DNA of 35,987 bases, from NCBI GenBank assembly GCA_003345545.1, contig PRDH01000058.1, positions 1-35,987 of the forward strand, in the 5' to 3' direction. The notes below the pieces were generated by a model. The model saw only the letters and a list, made by a program, of their open reading frames with translations, was not told the DNA's origin and did no database searches. Shown here in pieces: positions 9,209-34,997 of this stretch. The position numbers and the translations under genes were made by a program. How positions within the stretch are numbered: the stretch's first letter is position 1; every line of letters starts with the position of its first letter. The stretch is from Candidatus Thorarchaeota archaeon (GTDB lineage: Archaea; Asgardarchaeota; Thorarchaeia; Thorarchaeales; Thorarchaeaceae).

Positions 9209-11569
9209 ATGCCGAAACGCTTGATACTTGGGACAAGACCTGAATCCGATCCTCTGAAGGAGTTTTCTGACTCTGACTACTCCTCTTCCTCTTCTACCGA
9301 GATACGATGGGACGAGAGGACTCAGAGTCGCTCTCTTGCTCTACCTGCTTTCATCTCTCTCATCTGTATAGCCGTGGGGTTGTATGACCCGCTCATCCCG
9401 CTCATTGCCGGAATTGCAGTTGTTGCGCTGGTCCTATTGATGCCCTCCGTCCGAACGAACTTGGACAAGATTGTCTTGCCAGAAGGCTTTTGGATTGAGG
9501 TGAAGCAAGCGGACATGCTTTGCTCTGTCGCTGATGACCTCATGGGCCTGAGCTGCCGGACACCCAAAGGTGTCCATCATCTAGTCGGAATACAGCTCGG
9601 AGCTGCTGACTCCATTCTGCTTGGTGATGTGAGTTCGTTTGTGCGAGCGGTTGATGGCCCGTTTGGTTTTTGCCTGACCGTGATGATGCGACCCGAGAGA
9701 GTCCAACGTGCGCTGGATGAGGAACGCATTGCTGATGCAGTTGAAGACTATCTCAATGCGATACCCAAAGGGGAGGTTGAAGCCTATGTTCTTCGGCGAG
9801 GGGGCCTGTGGATTTCTCAGGTGACGGCTGTGGGCCAATTCAAAAACCCCACTGATGGCGATACCTTCGAGTGCGCCGTAAAGGCATCGATTCCCATGAC
9901 CAAATGGAAGCGCATCCCGTCTAAAGCTCTGCAAAAAGGTACCGAACAGCTTGCCGCTAACGACCAATCCAAATCGTTCTATGCAGTTGGTTCAGAACTC
10001 TCTGAATGGCTAGTGCAGCTTCGGTCAGAGCTGGCTTCCGAGGTCGGAAGAAGTATTCCCGGTCAGTTTCTTGCCCCGATCAGAGGGAGATCCGATGACT
10101 ATCGCTTAGGCGTGACCATCAATCCGGATACCTTACAGTCAGGACCGCCAGTAGGCCTCTCTCACCCTGAACTGGAGGATGGCTTGCTGATATGCGGAGG
10201 AGCTGCCGAATCAAGAATGAGAATCATTGCGCTACTGACATCCGAGCTCCTGCGTGGTGGCAAGCGCATTATCATCTTTACAAACAACAGAGCATCTATT
10301 GGTTATGCTCGGCTCTCGGAAGGAGCTGTGCATCTTGAACTCGGAAGGGACTTCGTGCTCAATCCAGTCGACTCTGAGGGTGTCCCAAGAAGCGACTATG
10401 TACCACTTCTCATCTCTTCCCTTGAAGTCGTGGCAGCCACGGACCTGAGGGGTGCCGCTGAGCTTGAGCTGGCAATATCGCGTGCCGTCACTCTTGGAAA
10501 TGCAACACTGGCTGATGTTCAACTCAACAATGGCTTTGAAGAGGCTATTTCAGCTTCTCCTGATACCTCGAAACCACTCGAATCAACGCCTTCGAACAAG
10601 TCGAAGACTGGAATGGAGGCAGTTCGTTCATTGCATCAAGGCTCTGCCGCCAAGGCATTCTATGGCACTCAGACAGTTCCCACTTCTAGACTCACAGAAT
10701 CTACGCTGACTGTTGTGAGAGTTCTTCTGGGCTCTGCATCTCTCGAGCACTTTGCTTGGAATGTGATTTCAATCAAGCTGGCTGGCCTGCGCCCGGACCC
10801 CAATCTAGTGGTGATTCTTGATGGACCGGAGAACATGCGAGTGAGGAATCGAACCTTCATGAAGCACGACTCGCTTAGTGAGCGTCTTCTTGAAAACATG
10901 AAGAAGAGAGGTCCAGTCGTAGTAGCATTGGAGCATCCTGCAGACATGGCTGCAGGAGCTATCGGTGTTTTGGCTTCGTGCGTGTCACTAAGGCTGCGCG
11001 AGGCAGCAGACATCAGTATGGCTTCCGACATATTGGGCCTGAATGTGATTACGACTCCCTTGCATACTAAAGCCCGTATCTCTCCGAGAGAATCGTCATA
11101 TCTTCGAGTAATGGAAGATGACACTGCGCTCCTTGTGCATGATGGGACTGAGAGTTGTCAACCTATTAGACTCGACCCAGCTCCAGAACTGACACCGGAG
11201 AGTGATACAGAGCAGGACTCCGAACGGATTGGCACCCTGCTATCATCTGAGGACACGAGCACAGCACCGAATCAAGGGCCTTTGCTTGATAGAGTTTCTG
11301 CGGGCAGTACTATTCTTGCTATCAGGGTCCTGAAGTTACTTGAGAGATACGAACCGTTGACTCAGGAGGCTGTACGTCGATTCATAGTGGCTAGTGGTTC
11401 AGAGAATGATCCTGACGTAGAGGCTGTCCTTGCGAGGCTTGAGCACGCCAGCATGATTCTCCGCGGTCATGAGGTCCACAGTGGGGTATCGTATACAAAC
11501 TACAGAATCACGATGAAAGGAAGCATGGCACTTCGTCAGACTGAGGGTATGGAGGGCGCAATTGTATGA
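9209..11569 (+). CDS. Membrane-anchored HerA/VirB4/FtsK-fold protein with degenerate Walker motifs (putative pseudo-ATPase) and C-terminal wHTH
   Basis: 2 N-terminal TMs. HerA-like order: YRLG..PVGL, GLLICGGAAESR (eroded Walker A), RIIIF, LGRDFVLNPVD, VVILDGPEN (eroded DEAH), MKKRGPVVVALEHPADM (cf. GRKYG..ASQRP), LRL...D....LG, DTALL. C-terminal LARLEHASMI...YRITMKG wHTH. Confidence 0.7.
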   Translation: MPKRLILGTRPESDPLKEFSDSDYSSSSSTEIRWDERTQSRSLALPAFISLICIAVGLYDPLIPLIAGIAVVALVLLMPSVRTNLDKIVLPEGFWIEVKQADMLCSVADDLMGLSCRTPKGVHHLVGIQLGAADSILLGDVSSFVRAVDGPFGFCLTVMMRPERVQRALDEERIADAVEDYLNAIPKGEVEAYVLRRGGLWISQVTAVGQFKNPTDGDTFECAVKASIPMTKWKRIPSKALQKGTEQLAANDQSKSFYAVGSELSEWLVQLRSELASEVGRSIPGQFLAPIRGRSDDYRLGVTINPDTLQSGPPVGLSHPELEDGLLICGGAAESRMRIIALLTSELLRGGKRIIIFTNNRASIGYARLSEGAVHLELGRDFVLNPVDSEGVPRSDYVPLLISSLEVVAATDLRGAAELELAISRAVTLGNATLADVQLNNGFEEAISASPDTSKPLESTPSNKSKTGMEAVRSLHQGSAAKAFYGTQTVPTSRLTESTLTVVRVLLGSASLEHFAWNVISIKLAGLRPDPNLVVILDGPENMRVRNRTFMKHDSLSERLLENMKKRGPVVVALEHPADMAAGAIGVLASCVSLRLREAADISMASDILGLNVITTPLHTKARISPRESSYLRVMEDDTALLVHDGTESCQPIRLDPAPELTPESDTEQDSERIGTLLSSEDTSTAPNQGPLLDRVSAGSTILAIRVLKLLERYEPLTQEAVRRFIVASGSENDPDVEAVLARLEHASMILRGHEVHSGVSYTNYRITMKGSMALRQTEGMEGAIV

Positions 11570-13758
11570 ATGTGATTTCGGATGTGACCTCACAAGTCAC
11601 AAAACTACTCAGTCAGGCTGGGATGAAACCCCGGGGTATTCAGACCGAGGCAATCAACAGAGGTCTCTTGGAGGGAGAGAGCATCATGGTCTCCTCTCCA
11701 ACAGGCTCTGGCAAGACATTATGCGGTGAGATTGCACTTCTGAGAGCAGCTGCCTCCGGAAAGAAAGGACTGTTTCTCGTGCCATTACGAGCTCTTGCAG
11801 TTCAGGTATTCAGAACGATGAGAGAAAGATACGAGCACTTGGGCATCTCCATCGGACTGAGCACAGGTGATTTTCAAGACAATGGAGATGGGCTCGCTGC
11901 GAATGATATCATCGTCACGACGTACGAACGTGCAGATTCACTCTTGCGAAGCAGAAGTAGTTGTCTCTCGGAGGTTGGCACGATTGTCATCGATGAAATT
12001 CAAACGCTCTCTGAAACTGGCCGAGGAGCTCGTCTTGAGAGCTTCATTATTCGGGCAAAGCGAAGCATTCAAGACCTTCAGATTGTGGCACTATCCGCCA
12101 CAACAGGTGCTCCCGAGGAACTTGCTGAGTGGCTGGGATGTCGTCTTGTAATCTCAGACGAACGCCCTGTTCCTCTTGTGTATCGAGTAATCACAGCTAG
12201 TGACAAGGTTCTCACGATCAGGCACTTGGTGATGACCACCGTTCAAGCGAATGGACAGGCAATCATCTTTCACAGGACTCGTCGGGAAGCTGAAGCGGAG
12301 GCTAGACGACTCGCCGATGATGTGGGGCGCCAGTTCACTTCTGATGAGAAGACGCGCCTTGATCACGAGTTGAACTCAGTTGAGAATTGGTATGTGCCCC
12401 TCTCGTCAGATCTTAAGACCCTTCTACACAATGGCGTCGCATTTCATCATGCAGGTCTCGGCTTCAATGGTCGGCGAATTGTTGAGCGATTGTTCGATGA
12501 AGGATTGGTCCGCGTCATTTGTGCCACGACAACATTGTCAGCCGGAATGGACCTGCCAGCAAGAACCGTGATACTCTCCAACTTCAAGTCTCCTGCTGAC
12601 CATAGAAGATTCCTGTCAGCAAATACGGTCCATCAGATGCTGGGGAGGGCAGGTCGTCCTACTCATGACAAGATAGGATTCGGAATCATCATTGGAAGCA
12701 GCACCGGTGAGAGTGAGGAGGCAAAACGCCGGTACTTCGAAGTCACTGAAGATGCGACTTCAGGAAAGGAAGTTCTATCTCCCAGATATGATCGTATCAA
12801 CAGCGCACTTGCCCACCCAGACACTCTTGCTGAACAGCTTCTTGTTGCTCTCGATATGATTTCCCCAGCATCGATTGAAGATGTCGAGAATGGCTTGCTT
12901 GGTGAATCCTTTTTGGTCTTCTGTGCAATTCGAGACTCAAAGGCTCCCATGAGGGTTCTGCAGTTGGGTGAAATCTCGGCGGCTTCGGTCTTGGAGCAGC
13001 ATGCCCTCCTTGAAACCATTCAGACTGCCCGCAAGGACTTACTTGGCAAGACGTCACTTCGTGAGAAGAACGAGACAGTAATTGGCGGGATTGTTACGAT
13101 GCTTGATGGGGGGCAATTCACCTGTCGCTTCTCGGTACGTCTTTCATCATCGGGCGTTGTTGAAGGTCCAATGTGCTCGTGTGGCTCACCCTTGTCAGAG
13201 AGCGGCATTCTGTGCTATCATCTAGTGACCCTAGGAATGGCTGCTGCCAGAGACCTGGGCAATCTGGCTGATTACGTCATTCCTCTCTCACTCTCTGAAT
13301 CGAGCCCTCTGGGTCTGCTGATACGCCTTGGGCTCGTCGAGGGTGATATCAATGGCAAGATTAGACCTACACGTCTTGGTCGGGCCGTGAGCAGGCTCTA
13401 TCTACGGATCCCCACAGTTCGAGAAACCCTTGCAATGCTCCCTTCGACTGATGACGTTGAGTCGCTCTTATGGCTCTTGAGGCACGTTGTTTCAATTGAA
13501 ACAGGGATGTCACTCGGTGACGGATTTGATAATTTGATCAGCTATCTTGTGACGACCGAAACCTCGATAGAAGACTTGGCGCACCAGTTTGAGCTAGGCA
13601 TCGGCGATGTTTATGGCTTGCTGGACACTTCTAGGTGGCTTCTCCACGCCATTTCTGCCTTAGCAGATTTGGGAGGTCTTGAGAAAGCAACTGAGATAGC
13701 CAAGGGCCTTTGTGAGGCGTTAGATCGACGACTGACAAACAATGTAGAGGAGGACTAA
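11566..13758 (+). CDS. hel308: Hel308/Hjm (Ski2-like) DNA helicase with inserted SWIM Zn finger, lacking C-terminal HhH domain
   Basis: PRGIQ, SPTGSGKT, VPLRALA, TTYE, DEIQ, LSAT, RPVPL, GVAFHHAGL, ATTTLSAGMDLPA, QMLGRAGRP, PTRLGRAVSRLYL, GDVYGLLDTSRWLL ratchet helix. CSC-x10-CYH at 13174-13221. ATGA overlap. Confidence 0.85.
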   Translation: MNVISDVTSQVTKLLSQAGMKPRGIQTEAINRGLLEGESIMVSSPTGSGKTLCGEIALLRAAASGKKGLFLVPLRALAVQVFRTMRERYEHLGISIGLSTGDFQDNGDGLAANDIIVTTYERADSLLRSRSSCLSEVGTIVIDEIQTLSETGRGARLESFIIRAKRSIQDLQIVALSATTGAPEELAEWLGCRLVISDERPVPLVYRVITASDKVLTIRHLVMTTVQANGQAIIFHRTRREAEAEARRLADDVGRQFTSDEKTRLDHELNSVENWYVPLSSDLKTLLHNGVAFHHAGLGFNGRRIVERLFDEGLVRVICATTTLSAGMDLPARTVILSNFKSPADHRRFLSANTVHQMLGRAGRPTHDKIGFGIIIGSSTGESEEAKRRYFEVTEDATSGKEVLSPRYDRINSALAHPDTLAEQLLVALDMISPASIEDVENGLLGESFLVFCAIRDSKAPMRVLQLGEISAASVLEQHALLETIQTARKDLLGKTSLREKNETVIGGIVTMLDGGQFTCRFSVRLSSSGVVEGPMCSCGSPLSESGILCYHLVTLGMAAARDLGNLADYVIPLSLSESSPLGLLIRLGLVEGDINGKIRPTRLGRAVSRLYLRIPTVRETLAMLPSTDDVESLLWLLRHVVSIETGMSLGDGFDNLISYLVTTETSIEDLAHQFELGIGDVYGLLDTSRWLLHAISALADLGGLEKATEIAKGLCEALDRRLTNNVEED

Positions 13759-30337: not shown

Positions 30338-32311
30338 TCAGGACCTGATTTGACTAAGAAAACCAGTTATATCATCATCCCAAGTCCCATCAGGCAGCAA
30401 TAGCCTTTGATAGAGGTTGCTAACGTATCCGGCGTATGCAGAGACTCTGTAACCCTTAATAATGACATCATACTCGCTAGCCTTTCTAGGTAGATTAACA
30501 AGAATATCATACGCTCTCTTCTCTGGCACCCTTGCCATGATTATGCACGAATTACTACTCTCAGAAACCATTGCTGTTGTGGTTGGAAGGTGAACCAAAG
30601 TAGATCGTGCAATGGAATAGAGTTGAGGGACCTCGGCTTTTATCTCAAGACAAATCGAAGCAAGTCCCTGAATTGTGGGGAAGTATTGCAGATGCAATAT
30701 GCCTCTCTGTATGAATGAGGCCAGTTTTTCTTTCAATGACTCCCTGCTCATACGTATCATGCTATCATACTCACCAAGTTCGAGCGATTGGTTGTATATT
30801 CCCCATGAAATGAGATCTAGCACTCTAGCATCTTCATTCGATGGCAGACTTACTTCTCCAAAGCTCTTCAGACCGAATTCCCTGTCCATTTGCTTGATTG
30901 TTCTCCTACCATACAATGAGTTCTCGATGTGAATCGACGTATTCTTCCAAGACTCATGCTTTGGTAAATACAGTCCATAGTTGAGCCTTGACGCACTCCA
31001 GCGAATTGGAATGACGTTCTGTCTTGTTCGTACAATTCTATCATAGGCTGTCTTAGGCATTACGAGGACTTGGATGTAGGGCGGTTTCTGACCGGGATTT
31101 CCAAGCCTGGCTGCGTATTGAAGGTGCTTGTGCGGCCATCTGTGTGCTCCTCCGATATAGACTAGCTTCACAAGTCCGAGCCTAGCATCCTGGATGTATC
31201 CTCTCATGATGAGACTACATCTAATCAGTGAGAAACGGTCAAGCCATGCTTCCCTAGATGTTTTAGCTTCTTGCCTTGTTATTGGGATAGCAGTATGTAT
31301 CTCCTGCTTCAGATTCATAGAATGGGCCAGGCTGATCATCCTGGCTATGCGAACAGGAAATGTGTCAACTATCCTAAACCATGTTATCCCCCAAGGATCA
31401 TTGTCGATCTCCTCGGCTTTCGGCGCGAGGCCCGACCTGGGATCGCCTCGATCAACAAGGGCCATTATCCTCACATACTGGGGTGGAGGGGTCCCTTGAA
31501 TTAGACATTGAATGTGTCCAAAGACAAGATTTGGTAAAATCGCTCCTGACAGGAGGTTACTGCTAACTCCTGCCAGGAAGTCCAAAGGGTCTTCTGACGG
31601 GAGCTTTGCCCCTATGGTCCACGCAAGAAATGCCATCAGTTCTTGTCTGGTCTTCTCTGGAAAGACCTTTGGCACGAGCTGGTCCAGAGTGTCACCCATG
31701 GTTCCTCGACGTTCAAGGTTGGGAATGTCCACACCTTCTGTGAGCTTTCCTAAGTCTGACCAGGACGGTGCGGGCGCATCCAGCAAATCGGTAATTGCCA
31801 CATCCATCGAAGCTGCTTTTTGACTAACGAACAGTCTATTATAGAACTCCCAATCGGTTTCTAGTTGGAGGATTGAAACTTCGAAGTCACGGATAGCGTG
31901 AAGTCGGATTAGATTGCCAGTGGAATTCTCTAAAACACTCAGGAGATACCTTGAATCGCTCTTGATTCTCTGAATTGCCACAGTAGCATCAACTCCCTCC
32001 TGTGATAGATGTGTTATCCATTTGTCAGTACTTGGAGGATAAAGATCATCTTGGCCACTCGAATTCCTTCGGAACTTTCTCATGAATAAGGACGCGTCGA
32101 ATTCAACTCGGTCATCCTGTGTCATCGATATCGATTTACAGAGTGCTTCATCTGTAATTGAGAATTCGCCTTCAGCGACAGGCAGTTTCAATTCCGGAGC
32201 ATCTGTATTGATCAATTTTGGTCCATCTTCTGTATATGATAAATTACATCGGATGACCTCACCACTAGATTGGAATACCTTAACTGGAATTGTCATAACG
32301 CCTGCATCCAT
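30338..32311 (-). CDS. Hypothetical protein with C-terminal tandem Lrp/AsnC-like domains; paralog of 18784-20829
   Basis: 657-aa ORF. GYIQDARLGL, RLNYGLY...ESWK, LQYFPTIQGL, LP..SNSCIIMARVP, LYQRLLLPDGTWDD align by eye with the 18784-20829 product. Confidence 0.7.
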   Translation of the reverse strand: MDAGVMTIPVKVFQSSGEVIRCNLSYTEDGPKLINTDAPELKLPVAEGEFSITDEALCKSISMTQDDRVEFDASLFMRKFRRNSSGQDDLYPPSTDKWITHLSQEGVDATVAIQRIKSDSRYLLSVLENSTGNLIRLHAIRDFEVSILQLETDWEFYNRLFVSQKAASMDVAITDLLDAPAPSWSDLGKLTEGVDIPNLERRGTMGDTLDQLVPKVFPEKTRQELMAFLAWTIGAKLPSEDPLDFLAGVSSNLLSGAILPNLVFGHIQCLIQGTPPPQYVRIMALVDRGDPRSGLAPKAEEIDNDPWGITWFRIVDTFPVRIARMISLAHSMNLKQEIHTAIPITRQEAKTSREAWLDRFSLIRCSLIMRGYIQDARLGLVKLVYIGGAHRWPHKHLQYAARLGNPGQKPPYIQVLVMPKTAYDRIVRTRQNVIPIRWSASRLNYGLYLPKHESWKNTSIHIENSLYGRRTIKQMDREFGLKSFGEVSLPSNEDARVLDLISWGIYNQSLELGEYDSMIRMSRESLKEKLASFIQRGILHLQYFPTIQGLASICLEIKAEVPQLYSIARSTLVHLPTTTAMVSESSNSCIIMARVPEKRAYDILVNLPRKASEYDVIIKGYRVSAYAGYVSNLYQRLLLPDGTWDDDITGFLSQIRS

Positions 32312-32417
32312 CGAATCCCACGGGTCGTGGGTGACCTAGTCGTAGTGTGCATTTTCTTTTAATAACCCATGCAATAGTCAGGCGGATGAAAAAGGCTTTG
32401 TTGAGTATGATTCGAGG

Positions 32418-32471
32418 AAAAAAGATTGAAGGCCGTGCGAATCCCAAGATTGATTCAGGATCGCAGGCCTT
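32418..32471 (-). terminator. Hairpin + U-tract (intrinsic terminator or attenuator) after the 40-aa peptide gene
   Basis: Minus-strand RNA AAGGCC-UGCGA-UCCUGA-[AUCAAUC]-UUGGGA-U-UCGCA-C-GGCCUU-CAAUC-UUUUUU: ~17-bp stem with two bulges, starting 10 nt after the stop codon. Confidence 0.65.
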
Positions 32472-32481
32472 GCTGTGTTCT

Positions 32482-32604
32482 CTACCAGGGCTCTGGAGGC
32501 CTGCCAGTCGGTACGTTGCAGGTAACTGCGACATAGCTCCAGGGCTCCGGAGGCCGGCCGGTAGGAACGCTCGCATGTTTTTGATAGTTGTTCTTGTTTA
32601 TCAT
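32482..32604 (-). CDS. 40-aa repeat peptide MINKNNYQKHASVPTGRPPEPWSYVAVTCNVPTGRPPEPW (not in the ORF track)
   Basis: Translated by hand. The two DNA copies differ at 5 sites, all synonymous in this frame. ATG start; TAG directly after the second W; hairpin downstream. Confidence 0.8.
   Translation of the reverse strand: MINKNNYQKHASVPTGRPPEPWSYVAVTCNVPTGRPPEPW
32485..32569. repeat. 31-bp imperfect direct repeat x2 (32485-32515, 32539-32569; period 54 nt)
   Basis: ccagggctctggaggcctgccagtcggtacg vs ccagggctccggaggccggccggtaggaacg; 26/31 identical. Confidence 0.9.
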
Positions 32605-32962
32605 TGCGTTCACAGAGTTCTATGGTGCACCCTGCGACTCAGATTCGTAGCGAAACCATATGCATGTCAGGTCTCGTGTTTCGCATTGAAACAGGCAAAA
32701 ACGCCCATCAACTGGCCTAACGGAATGGTGGGTATATTAAGGAAAAGGAGAACAAATACTGCTAGCTACTTCTATCTAGAATATGATAGTAGATATTCGT
32801 TTCCTGAAACCGCTACCAGCGACAGCACATGAGTCCAGGGAGAATCCGCATTCATATCTCTGGCATACAGCACACTCTTTCTGCAAAGATAGGCTGATTG
32901 ATCAGTTGAATGAACCGGTGAGAAAGATGTAACGGCTGCAGTTATCCGAGGCCTTTTTCGGC

Positions 32963-33943
32963 CTATGCAGCTATTGCCAATGCTTCAGGAAGTATGGTCA
33001 ACCTCAGCCTAGCCACGAGTTCCTTGTATCTGTTTCGAATCGTGACCTCAGTGACCCCGCTCACTCGCGAGATGTCACGTTGTGTGACCCTGCAATCATG
33101 CATGATTGCCGCCACATAGATGGCAGCTGCTGCAAGGCCTCTTGGATCTCGACCTGTCACAAGACCGCGGACTTCTCTTGCCCTCTCAAGGATTTCCATG
33201 GTGGTATGCTGTACCTCTGTGGGCAGATTAAGTTCCGAGATGAACCTAGAAACGTACATGGCCGGGCTCGAGATTGGCATCCGCAGCTTCAGCTTTGTCA
33301 CGAGCATTCGATAGTGCGCAGAAATCTTCTTCTTCGATTCCCTTGAATGCTGAGCTATCTCTTCAATCGAACGGGGTGAGCCCCGATGCCTGCAGGCAGC
33401 ATAAACAGCTGCTGCAGCAGTTGCATCAATGCTTCGGCTTCGCCAGAGTCTTCCCGCAATCAGTTTCCGATACATGCGTGCTGCGTCATCTTTCAAGCTC
33501 TGCGACATACCTAGTTGCGATGATAACCGGTCAATCTCAGTCATGGCCTGAGCCAAATTCCTATCAAGCGAGCTGTGTACTCGGGTTCGAATCTGCCACT
33601 TGCGGAGCCGGTAAATCTGCGCTCTCTGTTTTGCACTGAAAGCTACTCCCCTTCCATCCCTGTCACGCCAGTCAATGATCGTGCTCAGCCCTTTATCGTG
33701 AATCGAAGCACTCTCGGGCGCACCAGTACGTGAGCGAGAGTCTTGTTCATCTGACGTGAATGCACGCCACTCAGGACCTGAGTCTATGCGGTGGTCGCTG
33801 AGCACTAACCCGCACTTTGCACAGATCAATTCTCCTTTCTCATTATCTCTGACGACCTCTACTCCCCCACACTCGGGGCATGAGACGTTCAGAGTTTCTA
33901 CTTCTCCTAGTCCCTCTCTCTTATCTAATGAATTACTTGCCAT
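32963..33943 (-). CDS. tfb: Transcription initiation factor IIB (TFB), paralog 2
   Basis: CPECGG..CAKCG Zn ribbon, GPEWRAF B-reader, HDKGLST, RLRKWQ, two cyclin repeats, VTQRDIS..GVTEVTIRNRYKEL. ATG 33943 has a GGAGG SD (alternative GTG 34000). Confidence 0.95.
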   Translation of the reverse strand: MASNSLDKREGLGEVETLNVSCPECGGVEVVRDNEKGELICAKCGLVLSDHRIDSGPEWRAFTSDEQDSRSRTGAPESASIHDKGLSTIIDWRDRDGRGVAFSAKQRAQIYRLRKWQIRTRVHSSLDRNLAQAMTEIDRLSSQLGMSQSLKDDAARMYRKLIAGRLWRSRSIDATAAAAVYAACRHRGSPRSIEEIAQHSRESKKKISAHYRMLVTKLKLRMPISSPAMYVSRFISELNLPTEVQHTTMEILERAREVRGLVTGRDPRGLAAAAIYVAAIMHDCRVTQRDISRVSGVTEVTIRNRYKELVARLRLTILPEALAIAA

Positions 33944-34031
33944 TCTTGCACTTTTTCCCTCCTTCAACCCGGATTGACCTGAGGGTCCGGGAACCCTCAC
34001 TCCTAGTTACGATCCTTCCTCTCAGTCTGTG

Positions 34032-34997
34032 TTAAGGTGCCATTGTGATGCTAAGTTTCTGAACGAGTTCCTTGTATCGATTCCTCACGGTGACCTCGGT
34101 CACGCCTGCCGCCATGGCAATATCGCGCTGAGTCACACGGTGATCTGTGAGAATGCTCGCTATGTAAATGGCAGCAGCCGCCAGGCCTCGTGGATCTCTC
34201 CCGGTCACAAGAGTTCTGTTCTCCTTTGCCTTTTCTAGGATCTCGATGACTTTCTGTTGAACAATACCTGGTAAGTCGAGCTCTGTGACGAAGCGTGGCA
34301 CATAGTTCGCCGGATCTGAGATGGGCATCTTCAGGCTCAGTTTTTCCACTAGTAGTCTGTAGTGCTGTCCAATCTTCTTTCGGCTCACTCGTGAGTGCCT
34401 CGCTATCTCCTCAAGAGAACGTGGCGCATTTCTCAGCCTGCATGCGGCGTATATTGATGCTCCAACCATCGCATCGATCGACCTGCTGCGCGCAAGTCGT
34501 CGAACAATCAGCTTTCTGTAGAGTAGTGCAGCAAGTTCCTTGATGCTCTTGTTGAGTCCCAGTTGTGAGGACAGTCGATCAAGCTCAGACATTGCCTGGG
34601 CAAGATTTCTGTCAACCGAGCTATGAACTCTAGTTCGTATCTGCCATTTACGAAGACGATAGATCTCTGAGCGCTTCTTCGCCGAGAATCGCTTTCCTTG
34701 CGAGTCATGGTCGCGCCAGTCAATCATGGTGCTGAGACCCTTGTCGTGTATCGCGTAGTTTGTGGGGGCGCCAGCTCGTGAGCGAGCGTCCTTCTCATCA
34801 CTCGTGAAGGCTCTCCATTCAGGACCTGAGTCTATCCGATGCTCTGAGACAACCAGACCGCACGATGCACAGATTCGTTCTCCCTTCTCGAGATCTTGTA
34901 CTGCCTCCTTACCTCCACACTCGGGGCAAGTGAAACCAGTATCTCCTCTAGAAGATCGCTCTGGTTGTTTTCTTTCACTGCGCGATGACATGGTCAT
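34032..34997 (-). CDS. tfb: Transcription initiation factor IIB (TFB), paralog 1
   Basis: CPECGG..CASCG, GPEWRAF, HDKGLST, RLRKWQ, GRDP.GLAAAAIY, GVTEVTVRNRYKEL; GAGGAG SD. Confidence 0.95.
   Translation of the reverse strand: MTMSSRSERKQPERSSRGDTGFTCPECGGKEAVQDLEKGERICASCGLVVSEHRIDSGPEWRAFTSDEKDARSRAGAPTNYAIHDKGLSTMIDWRDHDSQGKRFSAKKRSEIYRLRKWQIRTRVHSSVDRNLAQAMSELDRLSSQLGLNKSIKELAALLYRKLIVRRLARSRSIDAMVGASIYAACRLRNAPRSLEEIARHSRVSRKKIGQHYRLLVEKLSLKMPISDPANYVPRFVTELDLPGIVQQKVIEILEKAKENRTLVTGRDPRGLAAAAIYIASILTDHRVTQRDIAMAAGVTEVTVRNRYKELVQKLSITMAP

Follow-up and report, generated by a model that had tools for sequence, protein, structure and literature searches.

The repeat and the small ORF in the window

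The window analysed here, a 35,987-nt stretch of a Candidatus Thorarchaeota contig (PRDH01000058.1), contains a 650-nt gap between a TFB gene (32963..34000), which matches Pfam TFIIB, and the gene of a 657-aa protein (30338..32311). A repeat search of the window yielded a 31-nt direct repeat within this gap (32485–32515 and 32539–32569; 84% identity, spacing 54 nt), and the ORF listing contained a minus-strand ORF running through both copies (32482..32613), comprising 43 aa from a GTG or 40 aa from an ATG at 32604. In the frame of this small ORF (sORF) all five mismatches of the repeat are synonymous, four of them at third positions and the fifth a CGG/AGG exchange. The first-pass annotation of this DNA, made from the letters of the window, had reported the 31-bp repeat and a minus-strand 40-aa sORF with five synonymous mismatches, and both searches returned them as stated. 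The locus comprises the following features:

32733..32740, minus strand: TATA-like box TTAATATA, 136 nt upstream of the sORF ATG, conserved in the ortholog of genome G001
32605..32710, minus strand: putative 5' leader of ~105 nt, uniform in length throughout the family, with its sequence conserved at the level of clades
32609..32613, minus strand: Shine-Dalgarno-like GTGAA, 4 nt before the ATG
32482..32604, minus strand: sORF, 40 codons plus TAG, in the order N-terminal 12 aa, unit 1, 8-aa linker, unit 2
32539..32568, minus strand: unit 1, 10 codons with Glu-Pro-Trp at the end
32485..32514, minus strand: unit 2, the same 10 residues as unit 1, with 5 synonymous nucleotide differences
32429..32471, minus strand: strong stem-loop, beginning 11 nt past the stop codon
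32418..32423, minus strand: T6 run (archaeal termination signal) after the stem-loop
32358..32365, minus strand: A/T box TTATTAAA, 47–54 nt before the ATG of the large gene
30338..32311, minus strand: gene of the 657-aa partner protein, whose C-terminal half resembles tandem Lrp/AsnC (NirDL) modules

For the single unit pair of the window, the random expectation of five changes all being synonymous is ~2e-3. Taken alone, this pair would be only suggestive as evidence for coding, and it is the comparison with other genomes that we consider decisive for the sORF. Scans of the region and of the entire window gave no relevant Rfam or tRNA match, and the peptide had no match in Pfam or NCBIfam. Two long ORFs overlap the sORF stretch (32347..32832 on the plus strand and 32280..32576 on the minus strand); their counterparts in G001, a genome of the same genus, comprise just 50 and 42 aa, and judged by these ortholog lengths both ORFs are spurious. 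Just upstream of the sORF, two full-length TFB paralogs (345 and 321 aa) adjoin each other at 32963–34997 on the minus strand, a neighbourhood common to this genome (G000) and G001 only and not to the rest of the sORF family, in which the upstream neighbour is variable.

Conservation of the sORF and of its pairing with the large gene

In G001, a 377-nt block was 74% identical to the window, with the rest of the 651-nt intergenic query unaligned. The reading frame of the G001 ortholog (L007:1501-1620:-) is intact: both of its units are altered in parallel at three residues, and the four differences between its units are all synonymous. A DNA-level search of 40 relatives returned just one alignable ortholog, and the family was detected only via protein-level and neighbour-anchored searches. 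A six-frame search in the genus recovered additional, more divergent members, for which the downstream gene is always a homologue of the 657-aa protein and the upstream gene differs. Anchoring on the large protein, we obtained 66 loci in species-representative genomes and another 49 in metagenomes. In 76 of the 109 loci that include the start of the large gene, an ORF upstream on the same strand ends in Pro-Trp-stop, and most of the apparent negatives carry the same ORF with exactly two residues beyond the Trp. Among 92 distinct full-length homologues of the large gene, collected from Thorarchaeota genomes and from metagenomes, 80 are preceded by a co-oriented sORF with the ending [E/G/A/T]-P-W plus 0 or 2 residues. 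The 12 exceptions include the seven homologues that diverge most, forming one group on a midpoint-rooted tree, one truncated upstream region and two cases with Phe or Tyr replacing Trp.

All sequences derive from metagenome-assembled genomes (MAGs), and the comparative evidence obtained from them shows the sORF to be a genuine coding gene of an unannotated family and its pairing with the large gene to be conserved. Small ORFs are almost invisible in archaeal annotation, and only three members of this family have ever been called as proteins in a collection of 5.8 billion sequences. On these comparisons the finding is real and larger than the reading of the window by itself, namely an unannotated, family-wide micro-gene that is paired with an orphan, regulator-like protein and whose reality is established by comparative evidence alone.

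The members of the family range from 12 to 54 codons, the upper end being the three-unit form, and among 63 distinct Trp-ending peptides the lengths from the first Met cluster at 12–17 and 31–45 aa. Each of the short, proline-rich units is built of 7–11 variable residues followed by Glu-Pro-Trp. All 63 peptides share Pro(−2) and Trp(−1); position −3 is filled by Glu in 52 of them, by Ala in 5, by Gly in 5 and by Thr in 1, and never by Pro, and 35 have Pro(−4). About 18 loci have two more residues after the Trp. In all loci seen with a non-final Trp (L031, L043, L049, L050, L053-L055, L057, L064, L099, L102, L106, L112, L114, L120, L122), this tail comprises exactly two residues, never one or three, and Trp-stop and Trp-X-X-stop flip among close relatives.

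A second module is present in the same MAG on contig C68 (~9840–12100), comprising a 13-aa sORF ending in Pro-Glu-Pro-Trp, a hairpin with T-run and, 195 nt downstream of the sORF, a 673-aa paralog of the large gene. Scanning the MAG for ORFs ending in Glu-Pro-Trp-stop gave 13 matches, for which a rough, uncomputed chance estimate would be ~7–10, and the full architecture was found in just two of them, the ORF of the window and that of C68. Another of these ORFs, on contig C74, comes without hairpin and without partner gene and is probably a chance match.

Multi-unit peptides were found in 13 distinct loci, either with two units, with two units and a divergent third ending in Ala/Gly-Pro-Trp or, once, with three units. 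The range of one to three units per peptide across lineages fits the multi-core idea of the first-pass annotation, whose further claim, that a real peptide is encoded with its unit sequence under strong purifying selection, was borne out by the orthologs. Pooling 13 unit pairs, which are phylogenetically related and so do not represent 13 independent trials, we counted 0 nonsynonymous differences over ~310 sites versus 69 synonymous differences over ~95 sites, corresponding to a saturated pS of 0.73. The sole amino-acid difference among units lies in the middle copy of the three-unit peptide, and orthologous units from different species differ at 3–4 of 10 residues. Independent drift of the unit copies is ruled out by the lack of nonsynonymous differences next to saturated synonymous ones. 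Frequent gene conversion of the whole repeat is likewise excluded, because it would erase the synonymous differences between the copies, which persist. In the one close pair sampled (L020 and L088), copy-specific codons were inherited unchanged, and in L085 the first four codons are the same in both units, covering its two lineage-specific residues; rare short-tract conversion may thus have helped to spread replacements in both units. As parallel changes could spread in this way, selection for identity as such is what we infer rather than observe; conversion or not, the substitution pattern indicates that each copy is under very strong purifying selection for one lineage-specific sequence. Such unit identity would be expected if every unit tracks one co-evolving binding site. 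Third positions of orthologous and paralogous copies, compared by eye, were all saturated and gave no dating of conversion. The peptide types track the clades of the large-protein tree (FastTree), with multi-unit forms at no fewer than three separate places, one of them on a long branch.

The same data bear on whether the repeat could be a structured RNA or DNA element, its two copies pairing as a long hairpin, rather than encode a peptide. The copies of the window do fold as a 90-nt hairpin (z −3.2 to −3.7). For five other multi-unit loci, among them the closest ortholog, no such hairpin is predicted (z −1.4 to +0.6), the region has no Rfam or tRNA match, and across the family it is the frame and the amino acids that are conserved, with the nucleotides saturated by synonymous change. 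The RNA-only reading is refuted by these comparative data, and we give such an element next to no weight. The 90-nt hairpin (32470–32580, minus strand), seen in this genome only, arises partly from Pro-Pro-Glu codons that form a CTCCGGAG palindrome.

Putative expression signals around the sORF

Of 54 related loci, 53 have a TATA-like box, which lies a median of 138 nt from the ATG and mostly within 133–146 nt. This constant spacing implies a leader of ~105–115 nt and also identifies the true start codons of the short forms; transcription of the sORF would start at the 5' end of this leader. The leader block is ~74% identical to that of G001, and its flanks are not conserved. RNAalifold yielded no consensus fold for the leader, either for 23 sequences or for one clade of 10 sequences. 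The leader of one clade carries several spaced TGAG-like repeats, which may be operator sites, as no RNA fold was obtained for the leader. 5' of the TATA-like box, a block at 32760–32801 (minus strand) is near-identical between G000 and G001 and contains an imperfect palindrome centred on TCTAGA, a candidate regulator binding site. Just 5' of the ATG, Shine-Dalgarno-like GGTGA, GGTAA, AGTGA or GTGAA is present in 46 of 58 members.

On the 3' side, the pairing of the window's stem-loop is preserved in G001 by a compensatory pair, with a divergent loop. Defining a hairpin with T-run as a stable stem-loop followed by a run of ≥4 T within 14 nt, we detected it in 43 of 61 distinct related intergenic regions compared to 6 of 61 shuffled ones; the stem-loops of these regions have a median of −16 kcal/mol and start 1–54 nt past the stop codon (median 14). 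The sORF and the large gene are separated by 69–375 nt, mostly 110–230, and most related loci share a conserved A/T box ~30–50 nt 5' of the large gene, a candidate for its promoter. The simplest reading of these signals is that the sORF and the large gene are two tandem transcription units, maybe with read-through.

This arrangement would also suit a cis-acting leader peptide, in which a ribosomal pause at Glu-Pro-Trp, responding to aIF5A or polyamines, to Trp or to the large protein, would determine the share of transcription or translation that passes the hairpin and T-run to the large gene. The sORF always lies 5' of the large gene and co-oriented with it, with the terminator-like hairpin and T-run in between, its C-terminal stretch is the conserved part and is proline-rich, and in the majority of members the stop follows directly. 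In these respects it resembles the arrest and leader peptides (TnaC, RAPP/RGPP, the AZIN1 upstream coding region), which likewise are short proline-rich ORFs preceding a gene, are conserved in a C-terminal stretch that often adjoins the stop, and have a terminator-like element downstream. The upstream coding region (uCC) of AZIN1, with its eIF5A-dependent PPW stall site, provides a loose precedent (PMC8705083).

The known arrest motifs are, however, absent or not conserved in the sORF family. The argument for arrest previously drawn from Arg-Pro-Pro is not supported by the family: the window's Arg-Pro-Pro lacks the Ala or Gly of the Arg-(Ala/Gly)-Pro-Pro motif of RAPP/RGPP, it is replaced by Lys-Pro-Pro, Lys-His-Pro, Ile-Pro-Thr and others in relatives, and Pro-Pro-Trp, as in PPW-type eIF5A/EF-P-dependent stalls, occurs in 0 of 63 peptides, in addition to which the sORF has a terminator-like hairpin and T-run of its own. 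A Trp-stop ending is not obligatory, with Trp plus two residues in ~18 loci and flips between close relatives, and a distance of 1–54 nt from stop to hairpin argues against occlusion of the stem by the ribosome. The downstream gene, with its promoter-like box, probably has its own promoter. Furthermore, the units are here repeated and co-vary between species, and a constant ribosome tunnel cannot explain species-specific units that are identical within one peptide. We therefore regard a leader peptide as unlikely; a form of it in which the large protein recognises the nascent chain is conceivable.

The partner protein and candidate roles of the pair

For the 657-aa protein neither Pfam nor NCBIfam gave a match, and its 75 database homologues are nearly all labelled Thorarchaeota and all 'hypothetical'. 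An AlphaFold2 model of the large protein, based on a 34-sequence alignment, reached a pLDDT of 85.6 and a pTM of 0.82. Residues 320–657 of this model match the siroheme decarboxylase NirDL (Foldseek E 9e-6; VIA Z 10.3 over 267 aligned residues with an rmsd of 5.7, well above the next rows), and Lrp/AsnC regulators match residues 487–639 with Z 5.0–5.7. NirDL is a fused pair of Lrp/AsnC-like wHTH+RAM modules, i.e. an enzyme on an Lrp-like scaffold. A profile search of PDB sequences returned only the NirD-like wHTH at a weak E of 0.069, and the closest language-model clusters (ESM Atlas) are archaeal hypothetical proteins with HTH_24 or HTH_AsnC-type domains. The model thus places the large protein in the Lrp/AsnC superfamily at the fold level only, with a wHTH followed by a RAM (βαββαβ).

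As in NirDL, two tandem wHTH+RAM-like modules form the C-terminal half of the partner; the partner differs from the Lrp/AsnC (feast/famine) regulators and from NirDL/AhbAB in lacking a Pfam-level match and in its extra N-terminal region of 365 residues. The N-terminal half (1–368) was modelled at a pLDDT of 82 as a β-rich domain and a helical domain, and for its ~365 residues Foldseek and VIA gave no convincing PDB match (best Z 4.9), nor did the ESM Atlas (TM ≤0.28). Because this region has no recognisable fold, the large protein could also be an enzyme. The known ligands of the Lrp/AsnC–NirDL family are amino acids or tetrapyrroles, not peptides. A complex prediction for the large protein with the 40-aa peptide, both entered as alignments, gave a median score of 0.31, with the mark at 0.32, a value that we count neither for nor against binding.

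All 24 genomes sampled from the genus contain the large gene, as do 70 of the 76 sampled from the family (1–3 matches per genome), and in the rest of the phylum it turned up in 1 of 224 sampled genomes; in this MAG it is present twice, the other copy lying on contig C68. Its near-universal, vertical distribution fits better with a core regulatory module than with secondary metabolism. The sORF is linked to an orphan partner whose gene is missing from few of the genomes sampled in the family. Among the neighbours of the sORF, the large gene is the single constant, with no other conserved throughout the family. A DUF1512 protein, an Ig-like protein and an M24 peptidase near the large gene reflect clade-level synteny only, and haem genes were not among its conserved neighbours. 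In 21 loci of the short-peptide clade (L041:5232-6350 and 20 others), the gene 3' of the large gene, in the same orientation, encodes the DUF1512 membrane protein, which is also found on C68 of G000 (~12320); it may represent synteny or an extra component of the module.

Conserved adjacency would by itself be weak evidence for an interaction. The sORF could encode a real small protein with a function unrelated to its neighbour, the adjacency being inherited synteny, which inside one family can persist by descent, and the link between the two products is an indirect one. Yet the pair has been duplicated and kept as a unit (two pairs here, 1–3 matches per genome elsewhere), its spacing and orientation persist while all other neighbours change, and the seven most divergent homologues, grouped on the midpoint-rooted tree, are all without the sORF. 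An unrelated function consequently appears to us decidedly improbable.

Among readings that do connect the two genes, the peptide may be a multi-core precursor from which units are excised, e.g. after Trp, and maybe modified; the large protein would then serve for maturation or recognition, and the product would be a RiPP-like compound, a cofactor or a pheromone-type peptide. One to three identical units, variable linkers and a follower of 0 or 2 residues past the last Trp would suit such a precursor, and so would the strong terminator 3' of the gene, typical for precursor loci. Invariant positions of the partner include His, Trp, Arg and Tyr, e.g. in the His-rich loop 387–396, and its closest structural match, NirDL, is an enzyme. 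A similar layout is seen in RiPP precursors with several cores, in the precursors of the fungal alpha-factor and in Phr propeptides with duplications (PMC5199041, PMC11343458). As in the cyanobactin-type RiPPs and the fungal alpha-factor, several unit copies per ORF are separated by variable linkers, the copies are the same within a species and divergent between species, and a short conserved motif marks the unit boundary. In those precursors, however, the recognition sequences flank the units, whereas the invariant motif here lies inside the C-terminus of the unit.

The locus differs from such systems further in having no known maturase, protease or exporter. The first-pass annotation, in noting that no obvious maturase is adjacent, had overlooked the 657-aa gene, the sole constant neighbour. 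Searched in Pfam and NCBIfam, this partner gave no match to any family of RiPP enzymes, recognition elements, proteases or transporters; a neighbouring enzyme or recognition element of known class was not found, a new class being conceivable, and there is no second conserved gene nearby. Multi-unit forms with linkers and two-residue followers exist, but many members comprise 12 aa, the shortest length, and have no leader, and a hydrophobic signal segment occurs in none. Finally, the near-universal, vertical module resembles a housekeeping gene in its distribution, in contrast to the usually patchy loci of secondary metabolites and quorum sensing. We consider it unlikely that the peptide is a multi-core precursor.

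We tentatively favour, with a confidence somewhat short of even, a micro-protein acting in trans, each unit of which would be a cognate ligand of the Lrp-like protein encoded next to it. The sORF would be transcribed from its own promoter with the ~105-nt leader and hence be separately expressed, be translated from the Shine-Dalgarno-led ATG and be closed by the hairpin and T-run. Each unit would serve as a linear-motif ligand for the protein encoded directly downstream, with the invariant Glu-Pro-Trp anchor docking in a putative invariant pocket of the partner and the variable stretch setting the specificity of each paralogous pair, which would be needed because each genome holds two or three such pairs. 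Candidate sites for the pocket are the invariant His/Trp loop at 387–396 and the likewise invariant residues 92, 98, 144, 222, 266 and 279. Multi-unit peptides might engage two or three protomers of a partner oligomer as multivalent ligands. Peptide binding would modulate the regulatory activity of the large protein, possibly at the sORF's own promoter and leader. Physical binding, pocket and regulatory output, and with them the mechanism of the module, are put forward here by inference from the comparative data. Identical units, saturated synonymous sites and differences between species together represent a natural experiment that points to specific, co-evolving recognition.

We know of no precedent for an Lrp/AsnC-type protein with a peptide ligand. 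More specifically, the pair could constitute an archaeal peptide–receptor module, in which one to three motifs control an Lrp-like regulator and paralogous pairs are insulated by co-evolving specificity; this extended proposal we regard as doubtful. If true, an Asgard lineage would use short-linear-motif recognition of a kind best known from eukaryotes. Neither the sORF nor the large protein belongs to a described family; their conserved pairing and the identity of the units point to a type of peptide–protein pair that is not known from archaea. The result offers a testable hypothesis on an orphan family of proteins from the archaea most closely related to eukaryotes, and the combination of motif, hairpin and neighbouring gene provides a search recipe for similar micro-genes elsewhere.

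In layout and evolution, the closest analogues of this putative trans-acting pair are the RRNPP pairs of Bacillota and their phages (Rap-Phr, AimR-AimP, Rgg-SHP, PlcR-PapR). There, a tiny ORF adjoins the gene of a cytoplasmic receptor, the active part is the C-terminus of the peptide, the small gene contains duplications of the peptide unit, in some cases with identical copies, and peptide and receptor co-diversify (PMC10075063, PMC5199041, PMC11343458). The sORF is similarly adjacent to the large gene and diversifies with it, a likeness of layout and not of homology, which is lacking in either component. RRNPP receptors are TPR proteins, whereas the partner combines an Lrp/AsnC/NirDL-like C-terminal half with an extra N-terminal half, and no TPR proteins were among the best structural matches of the large protein. 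RRNPP propeptides carry N-terminal secretion signals, and RRNPP loci are patchy and mobile. In contrast, inspection of the 63 peptides showed polar N-termini rich in Lys, Asn, Gln or His and no secretion signal, the peptides being hydrophilic and many of them only 12–16 aa long, and the sORF module is near-universal and vertical in one archaeal family.

The DPW/DPF motifs of eukaryotic endocytic adaptors are acidic-Pro-aromatic linear motifs. The units resemble them, as a lead only, in having a three-residue acidic-Pro-aromatic motif that is repeated in disordered proline-rich sequence, and the sORF family also has Phe or Tyr variants for Trp; an appendage-like domain, however, was not detected in the partner. 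In the single-unit forms of 37–38 aa (L009-L011, L024-L028, L032-L033), an internal Glu-Ser-Pro-Phe-Asp/Glu is conserved; it lines up with the end of unit 1 in peptides with two units and may be a second, different acidic-Pro-aromatic site.
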